A stretch of DNA of 16,180 nt from a virus. Taxonomy: Duplodnaviria; Heunggongvirae; Uroviricota; Caudoviricetes. The DNA lies in the IMG/VR virus record IMGVR_UViG_2529292886_000014, positions 1 to 16,180 of that record; one strand, written 5' to 3'. A program made the position numbers and the translations under genes. Below are positions 1,595-6,654 of this stretch, one piece after another; positions within the stretch are counted from its first letter, which is position 1; each line of letters begins with the position of its first letter. The notes under the pieces were generated by a model. The model was not told the DNA's origin, did not search any database, and saw nothing but the letters and a program-made list of their open reading frames with translations.

Positions 1595-1783
1595 GTGTTA
1601 AGCACTGATCGGTTTATACGTGAAAAAGAATGCGAAAAACTAACCGGCCTTAGCCGTACGTGTCGCTACCGCCTGGAAAAGGCCGGACAATTCCCATCAC
1701 GTCGTAAACTTGGCGGTCGTTCCGTTGGCTGGTCTTTATCCGAGGTTCTGGCCTGGAAGGATAGCTGCAAGGCAGTTCATTAA
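1595..1783 (+). CDS. alpA: AlpA-family phage regulatory protein (excisionase-like HTH)
   Basis: 62-aa ORF with GTG start at 1595 preceded by SD AGGGGG (1584-1589). Sequence ...LTGLSRTCRYRLEKAGQFPSRRKLGGRSVGWSLSEVLAWK matches the AlpA/Xis-type HTH pattern (recalled, not searched). Position directly after int is typical of P4-like elements and PICIs. Confidence 0.8.
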   Translation: MLSTDRFIREKECEKLTGLSRTCRYRLEKAGQFPSRRKLGGRSVGWSLSEVLAWKDSCKAVH

Positions 1784-1929
1784 TCACGCTGGCGGCACGC
1801 AGCCGCCACACATCAATCATCTGAACACAGAGCTATAACCATGAAGATTGAATATACGCCAGAACGTGGGCGGGGATTCGTTCGCCCTGGTGAAACTGAA
1901 AAACAACAAAATTGGGGTTTTTCAGGCAT

Positions 1930-1957
1930 AAAAAAAGCGGCCCCGAAATGGAGCCGC
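1930..1957 (-). terminator. Rho-independent terminator for the minus-strand RHH operon
   Basis: Minus-strand RNA reads GCGGCUCC-AUUUC-GGGGCCGC (8-bp stem, one G-U wobble) followed by UUUUUUU (plus-strand A-run 1930-1936). It sits about 95 bp downstream of the minus-strand ORF ending at 2053 and before the converging alpA. Confidence 0.55.
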
Positions 1958-2052
1958 CTTTCTGAACAGATAACCCGCTGCGCCGTTTGTGTGTGTGATT
2001 CCAAACATAAGAACGGCAATGATAGCCGCTATCAGGCTGGTGGGCAATGCAA

Positions 2053-2226
2053 TCAGTCTGGTTCAGTTCGTTGCCATACCTGCAATGAGCGCGTTTCCCT
2101 GTACTCTTTAAGGAATTGCTCAAGGGCAAAAGCACATGGCGCGAATCTTTCTGATTCATGCTCTATCTTTCTGCGCCGTCTTTTCCGTGCCGGTGATAAT
2201 GTTTTGGTCAATTCTTTATCGGTCAT
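2053..2226 (-). CDS. Hypothetical small basic protein (57 aa), second gene of the RHH operon
   Basis: Minus-strand ORF MTDKELTKTLSPARKRRRRKIEHESERF... Start taken at the second ATG (2224-2226), preceded by AGGA at about 7 nt. Lies between the RHH gene and the minus-strand terminator. No recognisable family; could be non-coding. Confidence 0.3.
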   Translation of the reverse strand: MTDKELTKTLSPARKRRRRKIEHESERFAPCAFALEQFLKEYRETRSLQVWQRTEPD

Positions 2227-2283
2227 TGTGTTGTCCTGCATAGCAATGCGCCGTAATACCTTACACCACGGCGCTGATGGTGA

Positions 2284-2589
2284 TTACTCTGGTTCTTTGG
2301 TCTTGCGGCGCTGGAGTTCTTCACGTGCGACAGTGACGAGCTGCCCGATCTCCTCGGCGGCTTTGATTCCGAGTTTTTCCACCTGCGCCAGTGCATCGAG
2401 CGAAGAAACCAGGGGATTTTCTCCACTTCCTTCTGCCTGGCGCCGGGCGATCTCACCGCGTACAGCCGTAACTATAAAATTCGCTTTAGTTTCCCCTGGC
2501 TGTAGGGATGCCTCAATGCCACTCACTACTTCATGTGGAAATCTGGCATTCAGTTGCTGTGACTTATTGTTAACAGAACTCCTGGACAT
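2284..2589 (-). CDS. Arc/Mnt-like ribbon-helix-helix DNA-binding protein (putative satellite repressor)
   Basis: Start ATG at 2587-2589 (minus) preceded by SD GGAGGT with 6-nt spacing. 101-aa product MSRSSVNNKSQQLNARFPHEVVSGIEASLQPGETKANFIVTAVRGEIARRQ...; the LNARFPHEV...ANFIVTAVRGEI block parallels the Arc N-terminus (FNLRWPREV...). The track ORF (2284..2769) carries a 60-codon N-terminal extension judged spurious. Confidence 0.65.
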   Translation of the reverse strand: MSRSSVNNKSQQLNARFPHEVVSGIEASLQPGETKANFIVTAVRGEIARRQAEGSGENPLVSSLDALAQVEKLGIKAAEEIGQLVTVAREELQRRKTKEPE

Positions 2590-2632
2590 GTTTGCACCTC
2601 CCATTAATAACGGGATGCAGTGTAATACAAAA

Positions 2633-2686
2633 GTGAATACCAAAAAAGACTTGAAATGGTATTCACCTAAATGTAATGTGAATACC
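2633..2686. promoter_or_regulatory. Operator-like array of three 9-bp half-sites between divergent transcription units
   Basis: GTGAATACC at 2633-2641, its reverse complement GGTATTCAC at 2658-2666, and GTGAATACC again at 2678-2686. Located 44-97 bp upstream of the RHH start codon and about 110 bp upstream of the first plus-strand gene (2795). Confidence 0.45.
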
Positions 2687-2794
2687 ACAAGTGCTGATAC
2701 ATGCAATTCAGCAATTGAAACGACGAAGCCCCGCACTGTTGGAGCAGTAACGGGGCTTCTAACCACCAACGATAACGAGAGTATCGAGGTAGCT

Positions 2795-2998
2795 ATGAGA
2801 AATCATACCACACACCCGCAAGGGCGGGACCCGCACAACCTGAATAAATACATCTGGCGTTTTATCGCCCTGAGTACGGCACAACCGCGCGTGATTACCA
2901 TTGAGGCCAGCAGCGAACAGGAAGCACGCCAGCAATCCCCGGCTGGCTGCGTGATGGTATTCGCCGCCCGTATTCGTCAGGGGGTGTTCCATGCCTGA
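2795..2998 (+). CDS. Small protein (67 aa), possibly Icd-like cell-division inhibitor family
   Basis: ATG at 2795 with SD GAGG at 2786-2789. Product MRNHTTHPQGRDPHNLNKYIWRFIALSTAQPRV...VMVFAARIRQGVFHA. The THPQG and IWRF/FAARI motifs resemble my recollection of 'Icd-like' small proteins of P4-like prophages (unverified). Stop overlaps the next start (ATGCCTGA). Confidence 0.4.
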   Translation: MRNHTTHPQGRDPHNLNKYIWRFIALSTAQPRVITIEASSEQEARQQSPAGCVMVFAARIRQGVFHA

Positions 2999-3311
2999 CA
3001 TGACCAATTACCAGTACCTGATTAATCCGCATTTTAACTGTGAGCATGATATTGCTAAAAAGGTTTATTCCGCTGCTGATGGGGCTACTGACAATATATC
3101 AATGGCTGTTGCCTCAATTGGTAACCTGATGTGGTATGCGTCAGAAAATGAGGAATATGACGAAAAGGCCATGCGCATTGACATGGGGAATATTGGCTTG
3201 TTACTGGCAATGCTTGGGCAGTTTGATATTTCGTTACGGTGCACCATTGAAAATGCCGCAGATGCATTAAATGCCATAAAGAAAGCGAATACTGATTCAA
3301 ATCGGGGATAA
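2991..3311 (+). CDS. Hypothetical protein (106 aa)
   Basis: ORF with SD AGGGGG about 6 nt upstream; start/stop overlap with the preceding gene. No family recognised. Confidence 0.55.
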   Translation: MPDMTNYQYLINPHFNCEHDIAKKVYSAADGATDNISMAVASIGNLMWYASENEEYDEKAMRIDMGNIGLLLAMLGQFDISLRCTIENAADALNAIKKANTDSNRG

Positions 3312-3317
3312 ATAATC

Positions 3318-3617
3318 ATGAGAACATATTTATCTGGCTTGACTGCCAGCGGTTATGCACACCCTAAAATTATCCCCGGCGCTATTTATCTGGATAAGAA
3401 CGGTAACAGAGTAACGGTAAAAGAACTGATGTTTGACCGTGTGTATTTTATTCGTGATGGCTATTCATTTCATAGTTCGCTGAACGTGGAGATCTTTATT
3501 AGCAGATTCCGGCGGGAAATCCCGACTTCCAGAAATAACCATGTGTCACGTGTGGATGTGGATAAAAAACTACAGGAACTGAAAAACATGATTGCCTCGT
3601 GGAGAGAGCAGAAATGA
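3318..3617 (+). CDS. Hypothetical protein (99 aa)
   Basis: ORF starting 7 nt after the previous stop. Its stop overlaps the primase start (ATGA at 3614-3617). No family recognised. Confidence 0.55.
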   Translation: MRTYLSGLTASGYAHPKIIPGAIYLDKNGNRVTVKELMFDRVYFIRDGYSFHSSLNVEIFISRFRREIPTSRNNHVSRVDVDKKLQELKNMIASWREQK

Positions 3618-5431
3618 AAAAAGCGCCAAATTTAAAACACCAGCCACGTGACAAAATGACGGAAGTCATCATTTTTGCGGGTAGTGATGCGTGGGCACAT
3701 GCGAAGCAGTGGCAGGAACAGGACGGGCGACTGGCTGGCGATAACGTGCCACCTGTCTGGCTTGGAGAGCAACAACTTGCCGAACTGGACAACCTGCAAA
3801 TCGTACCGGACGGACGCTATCGCGTGCGTCTCTACCAGGCGGGGTTATTGCGTCCTGGGCTTGTTAATACCATCGGGCAGAAACTGGCAGCGGCAGGTGT
3901 CAGGGATGCTGATTATTATCCTGAAGGAATGCACAGCCAGAAACGGGAGAACTGGCGCGAATATCTGGAACGTGAGCGGGGAGAGCTGGCGGAAAAGAAA
4001 AAGGTAGTTGAACTGCCTGTAAAGAAAAAAGAGCGGGTAAAAGACGATAACGCTTCATCACTGGCGCTTAACCAGATGGGAGCAAGTCAACGCGGCGAAG
4101 TTCTCCTGGCACATTATGGCGGGGAACTGGCGATTCATGCCGACTCTGACACTGTTCACCATTACAACGGCGTTATATGGGAGCCGGTTCAGGATAAAGA
4201 ATTACAGCGAGCTATGGCACAGATTTTCATTGATGCGGAGATCAGCTATTCGCAGAACGCCATTAAATCGGCGGTCGATACCATGAAGTTAAGTTTGCCT
4301 GTAATGGGGAATACAGCCCGTAACCTGATTGGATTCAGTAACGGGGTATTTGATACCAGAACAGGTAATTTTCGGGAGCATAACAAAAACGACTGGTTGT
4401 TAATTGCCAGTGAATTACCTTTCAGCCCACCAGCAGAGGGGGAAACGCTGGCAACACATGCGCCGAATTTCTGGAAGTGGTTACGCCGTTCGGTGGCTGA
4501 GAATGACCGCAAGGCGGATCGCGTACTGGCTGCATTATTCATGGTGCTGGCGAACCGGTACGACTGGCAGTTATTCATTGAGGTAACAGGTCCAGGGGGA
4601 AGTGGTAAAAGCGTGATGGCGGAGATTTGCACCATGCTGGCGGGTAAGGCCAACACAGTATCGGCAAGCATGAAGGCGCTGGAAGATGCAAGGGAACGCG
4701 CGTTAGTGGTTGGCTTTTCGCTGATTATCATGCCGGATATGACCCGCTACGCTGGTGATGGGGCAGGGATTAAGGCTATTACAGGCGGTGACAAGGTGGC
4801 AATTGACCCGAAACACAAAGCCCCCTACTCAACGCGTATTCCGGCAGTAGTGCTGGCGGTTAACAATAACGCCATGTCATTCAGTGACCGCAGCGGGGGG
4901 ATCTCACGTCGTCGGGTGATATTCAATTTTTCGGAAGTTGTACCGGAGAACGAACGCGATCCAATGCTGGCGGAAAAAATAGAAGGTGAGCTGGCGGTAG
5001 TGATTCGCCATCTGCTTACACGGTTTGCTGACCAGGACGAAGCCAGACGCCTGTTATATGAGCAGCAGAAATCTGAAGAAGCACTGGCGATAAAGCGAGA
5101 GGGGGATTCGCTGGTGGACTTCTGCGGCTATCTCATGGCGTCGGTAATGTGTGATGGCCTGTTAGTGGGTAATGCTGAAATTGTACCATTCAGCCCACGC
5201 AGGTATCTCTATCATGCCTATCTGGCTTATATGCGGGCACATGGGTTTGGTAAACCTGTAACACTGACGCGCTTCGGTAAAGATATGCCGGGGGCAATGG
5301 CGGAATATGGCAGGGAGTATATGAAACGGAAAACGAAGCACGGTTTGCGTTCAAACGTGACACTGACGGAGGAATCAGAAGACTGGATGCCATCATGTGT
5401 ATCGGTCACTAATGACGATAGCAAAAATTAA
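3614..5431 (+). CDS. P4 alpha-like primase-helicase (replication initiator)
   Basis: About 605 aa from the ATG at 3614 (SD GGAGAGAG at 3601-3608); the track ORF begins at an upstream GTG (3599). Walker A motif GPGGSGKS in the C-terminal half, consistent with the P4-family primase C-terminal NTPase domain (recalled). Immediately followed by TGTTCACC iterons, the sequence bound by P4 alpha. Confidence 0.85.
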   Translation: MKKAPNLKHQPRDKMTEVIIFAGSDAWAHAKQWQEQDGRLAGDNVPPVWLGEQQLAELDNLQIVPDGRYRVRLYQAGLLRPGLVNTIGQKLAAAGVRDADYYPEGMHSQKRENWREYLERERGELAEKKKVVELPVKKKERVKDDNASSLALNQMGASQRGEVLLAHYGGELAIHADSDTVHHYNGVIWEPVQDKELQRAMAQIFIDAEISYSQNAIKSAVDTMKLSLPVMGNTARNLIGFSNGVFDTRTGNFREHNKNDWLLIASELPFSPPAEGETLATHAPNFWKWLRRSVAENDRKADRVLAALFMVLANRYDWQLFIEVTGPGGSGKSVMAEICTMLAGKANTVSASMKALEDARERALVVGFSLIIMPDMTRYAGDGAGIKAITGGDKVAIDPKHKAPYSTRIPAVVLAVNNNAMSFSDRSGGISRRRVIFNFSEVVPENERDPMLAEKIEGELAVVIRHLLTRFADQDEARRLLYEQQKSEEALAIKREGDSLVDFCGYLMASVMCDGLLVGNAEIVPFSPRRYLYHAYLAYMRAHGFGKPVTLTRFGKDMPGAMAEYGREYMKRKTKHGLRSNVTLTEESEDWMPSCVSVTNDDSKN

Positions 5432-5442
5432 ACTTATGGAAT

Positions 5443-5667
5443 AACTGTTCACCACTGTTCACCCTGTCATAAATATCTTTTATATCAGTATATTATAGGG
5501 TGAACAGTTATTTATGAACTGTTCACCAAACTATTCACTGTTCACCTTTTTGATTGTTTATTGAGCTTCAAGGGTGAACAGTGGTGAACAGTTGGTGAAT
5601 AGTTTTTGTGAAACTGTTCACCCATTAACATTATGAATTAAAAGATAAAATATCAAAAGGTGAACAG
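5443..5667. repeat. Iteron array, putative origin of replication (P4 ori/crr-like)
   Basis: About 10 copies of the core TGTTCACC / GGTGAACA (often extended to AACTGTTCACC) in both orientations within 225 bp of AT-rich DNA: 5443-5453, 5454-5463, 5499-5509, 5517-5527, 5536-5546, 5573-5582, 5583-5593, 5594-5604 (degenerate), 5612-5622, 5659-5667. Confidence 0.75.
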
Positions 5668-6371: not shown

Positions 6372-6381
6372 GGGGGTGACG

Positions 6382-6654
6382 ATGGTACATGACCGCATAG
6401 CGGAAGAACTCGAGGCGAAAGGCTTTTACCGGAGGGCGGCGGCGCGATGGGGTGAAGTCATGCAGCTGGTGGAGACAGACAAGGAACGGCATCACATCAC
6501 GATGCGACGGCTGGAATGTTGCAGGAAGGCACAGAGGCCACCGGAGCCACCGGATAATTACGGAGACCTGAAAAAGGCAGTCGATCGCACTTATGCCGAA
6601 ATGGGGATAGATGGTGCTGGTGATGAAATATGGCGCAATTACCAGGACAGCTAA
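6382..6654 (+). CDS. PerC-family-like small transcriptional regulator (90 aa)
   Basis: ATG at 6382 preceded by SD GAGGGGGTG. The N-terminal motif AEELEAKGFYRRAAARWGEVM resembles the PerC/Pch family signature as I recall it (unverified). The track ORF 6262..6654 overlaps ssb and is judged N-terminally over-extended. Confidence 0.5.
   Translation: MVHDRIAEELEAKGFYRRAAARWGEVMQLVETDKERHHITMRRLECCRKAQRPPEPPDNYGDLKKAVDRTYAEMGIDGAGDEIWRNYQDS

Follow-up and report, generated by a model that had tools for sequence, protein, structure and literature searches.

The satellite P4 and phage P1 offer the closest described parallels to the early region analysed here. The left operon of P4 consists of eta/kil, epsilon, orf151, cnr, and alpha, together with CI/C4 RNA. 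In this operon, the 65-aa Kil frame makes up the C-terminal portion of the Eta frame, which is longer and follows the alpA homologue vis. The start of epsilon overlaps the Kil stop by 8 nt (GTGCGTAA), with its Shine-Dalgarno sequence lying inside the Icd-like gene; orf151 also has an 8-nt overlap and is followed by cnr and alpha. According to the summary of PMC10111431 which, with the P4 record, is our source for kil/eta, translation of Eta averts termination, and there is coupling between eta and the alpA homologue. In P1, the immI operon comprises c4 RNA, icd, and ant1/ant2; icd is the first cistron and overlaps ant1 by 4 nt, and the P1 record describes it as inhibiting cell division and as "apparently required for expression of ant". 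Inhibition of division or growth by proteins of this type is reported only for homologues, in the P1 record, in the P4 literature (PMC10111431), and in the work on ECOR61 (10.1101/2023.04.06.535777). In ECOR61 (Silas et al., bioRxiv 2023), a phage gene sets off growth arrest, which requires an Icd-like gene together with five genes linked to it, one of them for a primase; removal of the Icd-like gene abolishes the arrest, and the authors read the system as superinfection exclusion (10.1101/2023.04.06.535777).

Two further points of comparison come from E. coli PICIs, in which AlpA is the master activator (PMC6092414). The island EcCICFT073, which has been studied experimentally, carries, in the same order as the window, alpA, a minus-strand YlcI/YnfO pair, an Icd-like gene, small genes, a DUF4222 gene, a replicase, SSB, and PerC. 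Over-expression of AlpA in it leads to uncontrolled replication and lower viability (PMC6092414). The second is RgdR (ECs1581), encoded by Sakai Sp7 (EDL933 CP-933C, O-island 51). RgdR has been experimentally characterised as an activator of LEE type III secretion; it activates LEE1, represses motility, and binds DNA non-specifically, and sheep are colonised less well when OI-51 is deleted (PMC3378721). Activation of LEE1 and repression of motility are reported for RgdR and C1493 only (PMC3378721), and no role of RgdR in the life cycle of its own island is described in PMC3378721 or PMC6092414.

In the window (the whole stretch of 16,180 nucleotides that was analysed), three small plus-strand genes, ORF1 (2795-2998), ORF2 (2991-3311), and ORF3 (3318-3617), were recovered exactly where an earlier note on this DNA had placed them. 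Moreover, the NCBI PGAP annotation of relatives that are about 96% identical contains the same three genes with identical boundaries. The three ORFs are real genes and not chance ORFs, because ORF1 and ORF3 score against family models, ORF2 has full-length homologues, and the chain of overlaps recurs in relatives. The element itself is an allele of the O157 Sp7/CP-933C (EcCIEDL933-type) capsid-forming satellite adjoining phoQ, and RgdR is encoded in the same island type at the same site. The note had placed the genes in the early region of a satellite, running into a primase, and this was borne out: the block is the front of the satellite replication operon, and through an ATGA overlap the chain reaches a D5-type replicase (primase-helicase; 3614-5431, plus strand; D5_N, DUF5906, and Pox_D5). 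It is with this block that the early/replication operon of a phage-inducible, capsid-forming island of E. coli opens. Upstream of the chain lies alpA (1595-1783, plus strand), encoding an AlpA-family regulator (Pfam Phage_AlpA, 61.8 bits).

The replicase begins with an N-terminal domain (residues 1 to ~125; 3614 to ~3990) that is common to relatives with differing catalytic parts; in 10 loci this domain is 50-98% identical and is joined to primase, DUF927, or RepA modules. It gave no Pfam or PDB sequence hit, and DNA matching it was found in 1853 of 5426 complete E. coli genomes (about a third). In every E. coli/Shigella island examined in which the domain is at least 50% identical to that of the window, the gene order was Icd-like gene, between one and five small genes that vary and mostly encode acidic proteins, basic DUF4222 gene, and replicase. 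In two loci with an N-terminal domain 45% identical, a different 70-aa gene replaces DUF4222; the possibility that the 70-aa gene of L019 is a divergent DUF4222 was ruled out on comparison. ORF1 was present in 1401 of the 5426 genomes and all three genes together in only 465, and the break in homology between islands falls exactly at the end of ORF1. Substitutions in the three genes were few, with only a mild synonymous bias (synonymous to non-synonymous, 6:3 for ORF1, 3:4 for ORF2, and 4:5 for ORF3, compared with 55:14 for the replicase). The earlier note had asked how variable this slot is among related satellites, and had taken housekeeping replication homologues or a lack of conservation to speak against its reading; the Icd-like and DUF4222 positions are kept and the ORF2 slot is hypervariable, no homologues with housekeeping replication roles were found, and conservation was not lacking.

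The 67-aa product of ORF1 (pI 10.7) matched NCBIfam NF033153 over the entire model (positions 1-48 of 48) with 69.6 bits (cut-off 25; E 1.7e-19); the same model gives 52.6 bits for P1 Icd and 73.9 bits for P4 Kil. BLASTP aligned ORF1 with P1 Icd at 33% identity over 49 aa (E 2e-6), and a seven-sequence alignment shows a shared core. Judged from these matches, ORF1 is a genuine Icd-family member, homologous to P1 Icd and P4 Kil, so that a likeness the earlier note had described as weak proved to be a firm one. ORF1 is the first cistron, and the start of the next gene overlaps its stop.

The junctions between these genes can be compared with those of P4. ORF1 and ORF2 overlap by 8 nt (ATGCCTGA, 2991-2998), and the ORF2 ribosome-binding site lies inside the 3′ end of ORF1, as is the case for epsilon and Kil. 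ORF3 and the replicase overlap by 4 nt (ATGA, 3614-3617). ORF2 and ORF3, however, are separated by a 6-nt gap (TAA stop at 3309-3311, ATG at 3318), so the start/stop overlaps claimed for all neighbours hold at the first and last junctions but not at the middle one. Likewise, a Shine-Dalgarno sequence had been claimed for every ORF; this stands for ORF1 (GAGGT, 4 nt upstream of the start, -7.3 kcal/mol) and ORF2 (AGGGGGTG, -15.0 kcal/mol, beyond the 5th percentile of -10.3 among the 317 ATGs of the window), but the ORF3 site is weak (only GGGGA, 9 nt from the ATG, -5.7 kcal/mol, between the 25th percentile and the median). The replicase has GGAG (-6.4 kcal/mol). A chain of overlaps of 4, 8, or 11 nt recurs at all related loci examined, and in the distant satellite L013 an ORF2 homologue is found at the corresponding place, where it too overlaps its neighbour by 8 nt (ATGGCTGA). 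The block is laid out like the left operon of P4, the small gene just before the primase included, and like the P1 c4-icd-ant operon.

The region upstream of ORF1 is organised differently from that of P1 and P4. Three copies of the 10-mer GTGAATACCA lie within 2633-2687 (two direct, at 2633 and 2678, and one inverted, at 2657) and bracket a promoter-like TTGAAA (2651-2656) and TAATGT (2674-2679) with a 17-nt spacer. These hexamers were picked out by eye, and a consensus scan did not list them; the -35/-10 position is kept in the alignment of relatives, and the repeats differ by allele. Further downstream, a GC-rich leader hairpin with 9-bp perfect arms (2725-2759, plus strand) ends 35 nt before the ORF1 ATG. 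The leader fold was predicted at -37.6 kcal/mol (z -4.36), and in an alignment of nine sequences 88.9% of cells were paired, versus 31-48% when the structure was slid, with 3 compensatory pairs. The hairpin, which is conserved, stands where P1, P4, and two relatives have C4 antisense RNA. The two relatives (L005 and L011), which have the same ORF2, ORF3, and replicase as the window, gave C4 RNA hits of 82 and 77.7 bits directly upstream of the Icd-like gene. When the window was searched for C4, isrK, and c4-a1b1 RNA, no hit was obtained at E up to 1, nor was C4 RNA found in six other loci of the hairpin type; P1 and P4 served as positive controls. C4-type control of the window itself was thus rejected, and ORF1 must accordingly be regulated through another input than its P1 and P4 counterparts. 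Where P4 has C4/isrK, the window has instead the hairpin, the operator-like repeats, and an antisense YlcI/YnfO cassette.

This cassette lies inside a long open stretch that shares its reading frame with ORF1 and also with alpA. Starting at the base that follows the alpA stop, 404 codons are free of stops (1784-2998, plus strand); the first start codon, ATG at 1841, gives a 385-aa ORF (1841-2998) of which ORF1 is the 3′ end. There were 0 stops in the ORF1 frame and 18 and 26 in the other two, and none of 2000 shuffles was stop-free. In 12 of 16 loci the frame runs for at least 340 codons without a stop, and in 11 loci it has 0 stops whereas the other frames have 14-29. In EcCICFT073 it is open for 433 codons, and in L024 the Icd frame has one stop upstream of 433 open codons. 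On these grounds, the explanation that the 385-codon ORF is a shadow artefact antisense to minus-strand genes was rejected. Substitution counts cannot show translation of the long frame, because its third positions coincide with those of the antisense genes. In four loci, the start of the long frame overlaps the stop of the upstream gene by 8, 4, or 1 nt. Annotation of the Icd-like start is inconsistent (the annotated records examined give 65 to 157 aa, and calling the long frame gives 342-427 aa) because the gene is nested in the long frame.

Two minus-strand genes lie opposite the long frame. The first is a small gene of phrog_21027 (2053-2241; E 3e-16), 99% conserved in relatives. The second (2284-2589) encodes a YlcI/YnfO-family candidate ribbon-helix-helix regulator (NF041551, 60.8 bits; cut-off 30), is divergent from the ORF1 promoter region, and shows 29:4 synonymous to non-synonymous codon differences from the L002 gene; it is present in most relatives, with a HicB-family gene instead in two. 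The distance between the YlcI and Icd starts was 205, 196, 199, 196, or 187 nt, which is always 1 mod 3. The sole exception is L002 (197 nt), in which the long frame is broken. The frame is also broken in both O157:H7 alleles and in L022, and its extension is therefore dispensable at least for persistence. The N-terminal extension looks non-protein-like and matched no family, and the 385-aa ORF had no Pfam hit; Phage_ASH, which gives 59.7 bits with P4 Eta, was among the models that did not match. Given that the arrangement resembles that of P4, in which Kil ends the Eta frame, we propose that the long frame is an Eta-like long form within which ORF1 is nested as a Kil-like short form.

Taking this comparison as a guide, our best explanation of the locus is a P4/P1-like early operon in which ORF1 would act as a gate, ORF2 as a binder, and ORF3 as an aid to expression or replication of the island, and we consider the chances of this whole account to be about even. 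Upon AlpA-driven induction, ribosomes would translate the long frame (1841-2998), and translation of ORF1 would be the entry gate for all downstream expression, as reported for P1 icd/ant and P4 eta/kil. Since the long frame spans the antisense YlcI/YnfO cassette, transcripts begun near alpA could extend into the replicase without being terminated by Rho. A putative internal promoter would give rise to the short form, the Kil/Icd protein, which would slow host division or growth during the satellite cycle. There are also clear differences from the models. With respect to P4, the extension in the window lacks a Phage_ASH domain, neither ORF2 nor ORF3 is related by sequence to epsilon, orf151, or cnr (for both, the parallel is positional only), the replicase is of the D5 type with a different N-terminal domain, and the island makes its own capsid. 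P1, in turn, is a phage and not a satellite, it has the C4 RNA that the window lacks, and the genes downstream of ORF1 are not antirepressor homologues. EcCICFT073 shares the replicase N-terminal domain with the window but differs in having four slot genes, none of them ORF2, an RgdR-type DUF4222, and a P4-family primase module.

ORF2 encodes an acidic protein of 106 aa (pI 4.5) that matched phrog_15327 only. A search of 1.84 billion representatives yielded 17 hits, indicating a narrow orphan family whose full-length homologues (~100 aa) extend down to 25-41% identity. Homology search and structure prediction, the steps the earlier note had suggested for each protein, gave for ORF2 an orphan hairpin: the AlphaFold2 model (pLDDT 79) has helices at 19-51 and 58-105 that form an acidic two-helix hairpin. 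Fold matches were generic, and a viral structure library returned nothing below E 0.2 and no annotated viral structure. A match to a 1222-aa protein was set aside as helical-repeat bias, in that a kinesin-light-chain-type TPR protein had one helix pair matched 14 times. A relationship with P4 epsilon was also rejected (hhalign probability 0.1%); epsilon scores 170 bits on PF25738 (Derepression), whereas ORF2 hits nothing. The proteins of phrog_2196 and phrog_5796 that precede RgdR-type genes, which share by eye an 'MW..NE.DE' likeness with ORF2, gave a probability of 0.2%. ORF2 also lacked the features of a WXG100/EsxA hairpin (W-x-G in the turn, type VII secretion context). ORF2 is the only truly uncharacterised gene of the three.

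Between islands, the slot that ORF2 occupies holds one to five unrelated small genes, nearly all with a pI of 4.5-6.3 (one has a pI of 8.2) and all falling in PHROGs of unknown function. This hypervariability fits an adaptive, partner-binding role, and in the preferred account the acidic hairpin would act by binding another protein, which may be a helper or host regulator or ORF3. The helper-interference, anti-defence, or host-takeover functions that the earlier note suggested for the three genes are candidate functions. A more specific version holds that the slot genes are helper-specific antirepressors or interference/anti-defence proteins, that is, acidic binders of a helper repressor or of a host defence protein whose alleles track the helpers. 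In P1 this slot, which directly follows the Icd-like gene and overlaps it at the start, is taken by the antirepressor Ant, and in P4 by the helper derepressor epsilon; the unrelated, nearly all acidic contents, the homology break at the end of ORF1, and the G+C content of ORF2 (42%, compared with 51-57% in its neighbours) all point in this direction. However, ORF2 has no likeness to epsilon, to PADLOC models, or to annotated viral structures, the PHROGs give no function for any slot gene, and in the literature it is the helper that induces capsid-forming islands via alpA, with no report of the reverse. We regard this version as unlikely; the slot is nonetheless the place in which to seek helper- or host-directed inhibitors.

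The earlier note had found no match for either of the last two genes, which does not hold for ORF3. Its 99-aa product (pI 10.0) scored 61.1 bits (cut-off 27; E 7.2e-17) on Pfam DUF4222 (PF13973), and its predicted fold is a small Tudor/SH3-like barrel followed by a basic C-terminal helix. ORF3 and RgdR are both 99 aa long, belong to the same Pfam family, and align without gaps at 31% identity (E 1e-13); in each case the next gene is the replicase, the start of which overlaps the DUF4222 stop in an ATGA. ORF3 thus has its positional counterpart in RgdR/ECs1581 of this island's Sakai allele. The RGD tripeptide after which RgdR was named (residues 20-22) is absent from ORF3, which has P-G-A there, and K35 is common to both; the RGD motif is a trait of the RgdR allelic class and not of the Pfam family. 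From its sequence, ORF3 is best assigned to a second allelic class beside RgdR. A relationship with P4 Cnr (DUF5375), a regulator that binds the primase, was rejected (no BLASTP alignment; hhalign probability 0.07%). When 30 hits were sampled evenly from the 1853 genomes, a DUF4222 gene stood directly upstream of the replicase N-terminal domain in 29; a scan for DUF4222 across the genome collection yielded only two loci.

These findings bear on whether ORF3 works for the island or for the host. In the preferred account, ORF3 would be made together with the replicase and would aid expression or replication of the island by binding DNA, RNA polymerase, or a nucleoid protein, and what RgdR does to LEE, motility, and Congo-red binding would be a by-product of this activity. 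The alternative is that ORF3, like RgdR, is accessory cargo serving the host, mainly as a virulence/motility regulator beside a downstream PerC-like regulator. The phenotypes described for RgdR and OI-51 (PMC3378721) agree with this, as do the classing of RgdR and PerC as virulence regulators in PICI papers (PMC6092414) and the presence in relatives of a RefSeq PerC-family regulator at the corresponding position. But DUF4222 genes also occur in islands of commensal, UPEC, and Shigella strains without LEE, and they always come just before the replicase and overlap it in an ATGA, whichever catalytic module it has, a fixed and coupled position that is unusual for cargo; the missing RGD and the low identity of ORF3 to RgdR count against it as well. 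The cargo explanation is, in our estimate, unlikely.

In the preferred account, RgdR-type genes are placed in a conserved, P4-like, translationally coupled replication operon, and RgdR, known as a prophage virulence regulator, becomes a probable life-cycle gene. E. coli islands and P4 also have more in common than the three proteins previously stated (PMC6092414). These islands are widespread and move virulence regulators such as RgdR and PerC, and the operon placement makes the link between island induction and EHEC virulence regulation a testable question. A bolder extension can be formulated, although we think it quite unlikely: the plus strand from alpA to the replicase would be one ribosome-coupled chain, in which the long frame, selected only to stay open, would be a translation-driven switch that passes the antisense repressor cassette (YlcI/YnfO or HicB-like) and, once alpA is switched on by the helper, overrides both Rho and convergent transcription. 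The slot would then supply helper/host-specific inhibitors, and the Tudor-like protein of the RgdR family would act, as a factor linked to the replicase, on RNA polymerase or on H-NS-type silencing. If this were true, such a role of the RgdR-family protein would explain how islands of this type come to alter LEE, motility, and curli in EHEC.

The work on ECOR61 suggests yet another reading, namely that the block is a superinfection-exclusion or abortive-infection module in which an Icd-like growth-arrest effector is released when a phage protein is sensed, the other genes being needed for activation. The loss of arrest on removal of the Icd-like gene (10.1101/2023.04.06.535777), on which toxicity in that system depends, agrees with such a module, but ordinary satellite induction, itself toxic, explains the ECOR61 phenotype equally, and the ECOR61 locus was likened to ours by its published gene content and not by sequence. 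Moreover, PADLOC defence models did not match ORF1, ORF2, the replicase, or the minus-strand genes (5 of the 6 proteins scanned), and the best match overall, Cmr7 to ORF3 (E 0.018, 13.1 bits), was below significance; we therefore judge this reading very unlikely. Very unlikely, too, is a cognate acid-base pair in which ORF2 (pI 4.5) holds the basic ORF3 (pI 10.0), or ORF1 (pI 10.7), in the manner of an antitoxin or chaperone, since the near-constant company of ORF2 and window-type ORF3 (465 genomes with all three genes versus 470 with window-type ORF3 and the N-terminal domain; the pair also occurs in L012) may be mere linkage over 0.6 kb, L013 has an ORF2 homologue without DUF4222, and RgdR-type DUF4222 genes have unrelated upstream neighbours.

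PDB sequence searches with ORF1, ORF2, ORF3, and the replicase N-terminal domain returned nothing below E 0.09. When 50,697 phage records were searched by tblastn, ORF3 had no match and ORF1 matched only vB_KppS-Ant, the gene order of which is that of a capsid-forming island.

The region from 2795 to 3617 holds three open reading frames (ORF1, 2795-2998; ORF2, 2991-3311; ORF3, 3318-3617) that lead into a replicase gene. Our analyses show that this block comprises a leader of the Icd/Kil type, a single slot gene (a variable gene between the first and last members) that is truly uncharacterised, and a replicase-tied gene of the RgdR family, arranged as in the operons of P4 and P1. The earlier note, which had taken the block for three genes of unknown function with a first gene resembling Icd, was thus right about the first gene and wrong about three unknowns. 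How the block would work mechanistically we infer.

All three ORFs were confirmed in the window, and the same three are called by NCBI PGAP in relatives. The start/stop overlaps proposed for each junction were present between ORF1 and ORF2 (8 nt, ATGCCTGA) and between ORF3 and the replicase (ATGA); ORF2 and ORF3 are instead separated by a 6-nt gap. A Shine-Dalgarno sequence had likewise been claimed for every ORF. When all 317 ATGs of the window were used as a yardstick (5th, 25th, and 50th percentiles of -10.3, -6.3, and -4.0 kcal/mol), the site of ORF1 was good (GAGGT, -7.3 kcal/mol) and that of ORF2 very strong (AGGGGGTG, -15.0 kcal/mol), but that of ORF3 was weak (GGGGA, 9 nt from the ATG, -5.7 kcal/mol); the replicase site was moderate (GGAG, -6.4 kcal/mol). 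Relatives differ little, with ratios of synonymous to non-synonymous codon changes of 6:3, 3:4, and 4:5 for ORF1, ORF2, and ORF3, respectively, and 55:14 for the replicase. These counts, too small for more, suggest that ORF1-3 are under weaker constraint than the replicase; family membership (ORF1 and ORF3) and length-conserved distant syntenic homologues (ORF2) constitute stronger evidence of coding.

The resemblance of ORF1 to Icd was borne out both by a family model and by direct alignment. On the NCBIfam model 'host cell division inhibitor Icd-like' (NF033153, cut-off 25), ORF1 scored 69.6 bits and P1 Icd 52.6 bits; a direct alignment of these two proteins gave 33% identity and E 2e-6 across 49 aa. 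In the P1 record, icd, which overlaps ant1 by 4 nt, is entered as 'inhibitor of cell division; apparently required for expression of ant'. On the same model, the P4 record 'cI gene product (AA 1-137)' scored 73.9 bits over its final 48 residues. The C-terminal part of this P4 ORF, with first residues MATTLTPSHPEF, is 65 aa long, and we take it to be Kil, encoded in frame inside Eta. In P4, Kil 'functions in cell killing', and transcripts from a promoter inside eta end early under the control of CI RNA; translation of full-length Eta occurs from the upstream late promoter alone, is coupled to the alpA homologue, and prevents the termination (PMC10111431, summarising Forti et al. 1999). Start sites of Icd-like genes are inconsistently annotated in RefSeq, and other gene callers give a 427-aa long form.

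Window positions 1784-2998 (+) resemble these nested eta/kil genes of P4. From the base after the alpA stop codon, the ORF1 frame is free of stops for 404 codons (first ATG at 1841); it shares its reading frame with alpA (1595-1783) and runs antisense through two small minus-strand genes (2053-2241 and 2284-2589). In 11 loci, the stretch separating the upstream gene from the start of the Icd-like gene had no stop in this frame, compared with 14-29 in the other two frames, and in each of nine loci tested, 0 of 2000 shuffles were stop-free. In the related locus L024, a single stop precedes the 433 open codons of the Icd frame. Overall, 12 of 16 loci, EcCICFT073 and the distant locus L013 among them, keep at least 340 codons of the frame open; it is broken in L022, in the two O157:H7 alleles, and in L021, whose Icd-like gene is a pseudogene. 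The first start codon of the long frame overlaps the upstream stop by 8 nt (L020 and L023), 4 nt (L018), or 1 nt (L019). The YlcI/YnfO and Icd-like starts lie 205, 196, 199, 196, and 187 nt apart in five alleles, all 1 mod 3, and 197 nt apart in L002, where the frame is broken. The extension had no family match; its similarity between distant loci lies mostly in the stretch antisense to YlcI/YnfO, and its third codon positions, calculated from coordinates, are those of both minus-strand genes. We read this pattern as selection that keeps the frame open instead of acting on a protein sequence, which the P4 eta precedent would predict; translation of the frame is putative. Within the frame, at 1931-1965, lies a hairpin (AAAAAAAGCGGCCCCGAAATGGAGCCGCCTTTCT) flanked by an A-run and, on its other side, by a T-rich tail. 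Its appearance is that of a terminator serving the two minus-strand genes; plus-strand transcripts coming from alpA would need to read through it. In a 324-aa database sequence (P0162), ORF2 is joined to the Icd-like domain and the long frame in one ORF (..ARIRQGCAMPDMSNYQ..), implying a 1-nt change at the ATGCCTGA junction, whether by natural variation or through a sequencing error.

A C4 antisense RNA lies directly 5' of icd in P1 (68.8 bits) and of kil in P4 (74.9 bits). Such an RNA was also found 5' of the Icd-like gene in two relatives, L005 (3096-3297) and the E. albertii locus L011 (3353-3541), with scores of 82 and 77.7 bits, respectively; isrK also matched at both sites, and L005, which shares ORF2, ORF3, and replicase with the window at 96-98% identity, has a c4-a1b1 target element. 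No C4-type RNA was found in the window or in most other loci examined. In its place stands a conserved GC-rich hairpin at 2725-2759 (+), 35 nt before the ORF1 ATG. In nine sequences, 88.9% of cells pair in this hairpin, versus 31-48% with the partners slid; compensatory changes occur at three pairs, and the fold predicted for the 115-nt leader has an energy of -37.6 kcal/mol (z -4.36). In the literature searched, no description was found of C4 RNA giving way to a hairpin together with an antisense cassette that a long open frame spans. Weak minus-strand SymR-like matches (33-34 bits, below threshold) cover the hairpin in L003, L004, and L012. Further upstream, at 2633-2687, three copies of GTGAATACCA (two direct and one inverted) surround promoter-like TTGAAA and TAATGT hexamers; the hexamer position is kept among relatives, and the repeats there are allele-specific. 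We infer that these repeats are an operator for an island regulator, for which the divergent YlcI/YnfO protein is the obvious candidate. In two islands, a HicB-family antitoxin replaces YlcI/YnfO opposite the Icd-like gene (L019:2170-2361 (-) and L022:2167-2361 (-)), and the regulatory cassette is therefore exchangeable; in L022 a SWIM zinc-finger gene follows.

A fixed plan was seen in all opened E. coli and Shigella loci whose replicase shares 50% identity or more with that of the window in the N-domain, among them L021, in which the Icd-like gene is frameshifted. The first gene, divergent and on the minus strand, is YlcI/YnfO (or of the HicB family); it is followed by the Icd-like gene, by 1-5 small genes each starting 1, 4, 8, or 11 nt inside its predecessor, and, after a gap of a few nt, by a DUF4222 gene that overlaps the replicase by ATGA. 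Variability of the slot, which the earlier note had proposed to check, was evident: its genes fall into different phage protein families (PHROGs), none with an assigned function, and are mostly acidic; the Icd-like and DUF4222 proteins are basic. Blastn homology stops at the final bases of ORF1, which occurs in 1401 of 5426 complete E. coli genomes, with all three genes in only 465. The catalytic parts of the replicase also vary among loci (D5-type primase, P4-family primase, DUF927, or RepA/AAA_25 helicase). The N-domain (~125 aa; 3614 to ~3990 (+); MKKAPN..TEVIIFAGSDAWAHAKQWQ..) is 50-98% identical to the window's in ten loci, had no Pfam or PDB sequence match, and is present as DNA in 1853 of the 5426 genomes; in 29 of 30 evenly sampled matches, a DUF4222 gene is annotated directly upstream. 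Exceptions are L018 and L019 (N-domain 45% identical, preceded by an unrelated 70-aa gene), L013 (neither N-domain nor DUF4222), and L011 (a 39-nt gap before the DUF4222 gene). This DUF4222/N-domain module is likewise not described in the literature searched.

For ORF2, the statement that nothing recognisable matches it was upheld with regard to function: no Pfam, NCBIfam, or PADLOC model matched, and the sole family match was phrog_15327 (function unknown). A word-indexed search of 5.8 billion proteins returned 19 proteins, each at least 66% identical, and a full HMMER scan of 1.84 billion representatives returned 17 matches at E <=1e-3, five of them ~100-aa homologues at 25-41% identity. A strong match to a TPR repeat protein was discounted, one helix pair having been aligned 14 times. 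The homologue with 41% identity comes from a metagenomic satellite and overlaps the Icd-like gene there by 8 nt (ATGGCTGA); the gene order in that satellite is integrase, AlpA-like HTH gene, minus-strand YlcI/YnfO, Icd-like gene, ORF2 homologue, 122-aa protein, AAA_25 helicase, and capsid genes.

The same statement failed for ORF3, which scored 61.1 bits on Pfam DUF4222 (cut-off 27). The 99-aa protein encoded at the corresponding place in strain Sakai, ECs_1581, is RgdR, whose gene has an ATGA overlap with the primase; the two proteins align gap-free over all 99 residues (31% identity, E 1e-13) and represent two allelic classes, PGA (window) and RGD (RgdR), with K35 common to both. RgdR has been reported to activate LEE1 without requiring Ler, to repress motility, and to increase Congo-red binding; its DNA binding is non-specific, and its mechanism is described as unknown (PMC3378721). 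An AlphaFold2 model of ORF3 (mean pLDDT 74, core ~86) predicted that residues 23-56 form a small barrel of four strands, which is followed by a short helix and, at residues 78-98, by a long helix at the C terminus; such a Tudor-like predicted fold of the RgdR family is not described in the literature searched. The RgdR phenotypes (LEE up, motility down, curli up) look like loss of H-NS silencing; no link between RgdR and H-NS silencing was found in that literature.

The block sits in an island with the gene order of the E. coli O157:H7 Sakai prophage-like element Sp7, located between roxA and phoQ. An integrase (1-1230), alpA, the two minus-strand genes, and ORF1-3 are followed directly by the D5-type replicase (3614-5431) and then by SSB, a PerC-like regulator, HK97-type capsid, protease, portal, HNH endonuclease, and small and large terminase, with phoQ (minus strand) last. 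The counterpart of Sp7 in EDL933 is CP-933C/O-island 51, and from the strain and matching gene order we provisionally equate CP-933C with the prototype capsid-forming island EcCIEDL933. The closest E. coli matches to the region are ~96% identical and inserted at tqsA, so the window is an allele of a common island family. L018 (LR881103.1, 'Escherichia phage vB_KppS-Ant', 16.5 kb) was deposited as an induced phage, yet its genes are arranged as in a capsid-forming island (integrase, regulator, long Icd-like ORF, two small genes, primase, capsid, portal, terminase). The PerC-like regulator (~6380-6654 (+), 3' of SSB) was assigned by position, which is that of pchE in Sakai and of annotated PerC-family genes in relatives; it could either activate or repress LEE, both of which have been shown for other PerC homologues encoded by islands. 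Just 3' of the replicase, at 5516-5605, an AT-rich stretch that first surfaced as a spurious microRNA match lies between direct and inverted copies of CTGTTCACC / GGTGAACAG, and resembles the iteron-type origin reported for E. coli PICIs.
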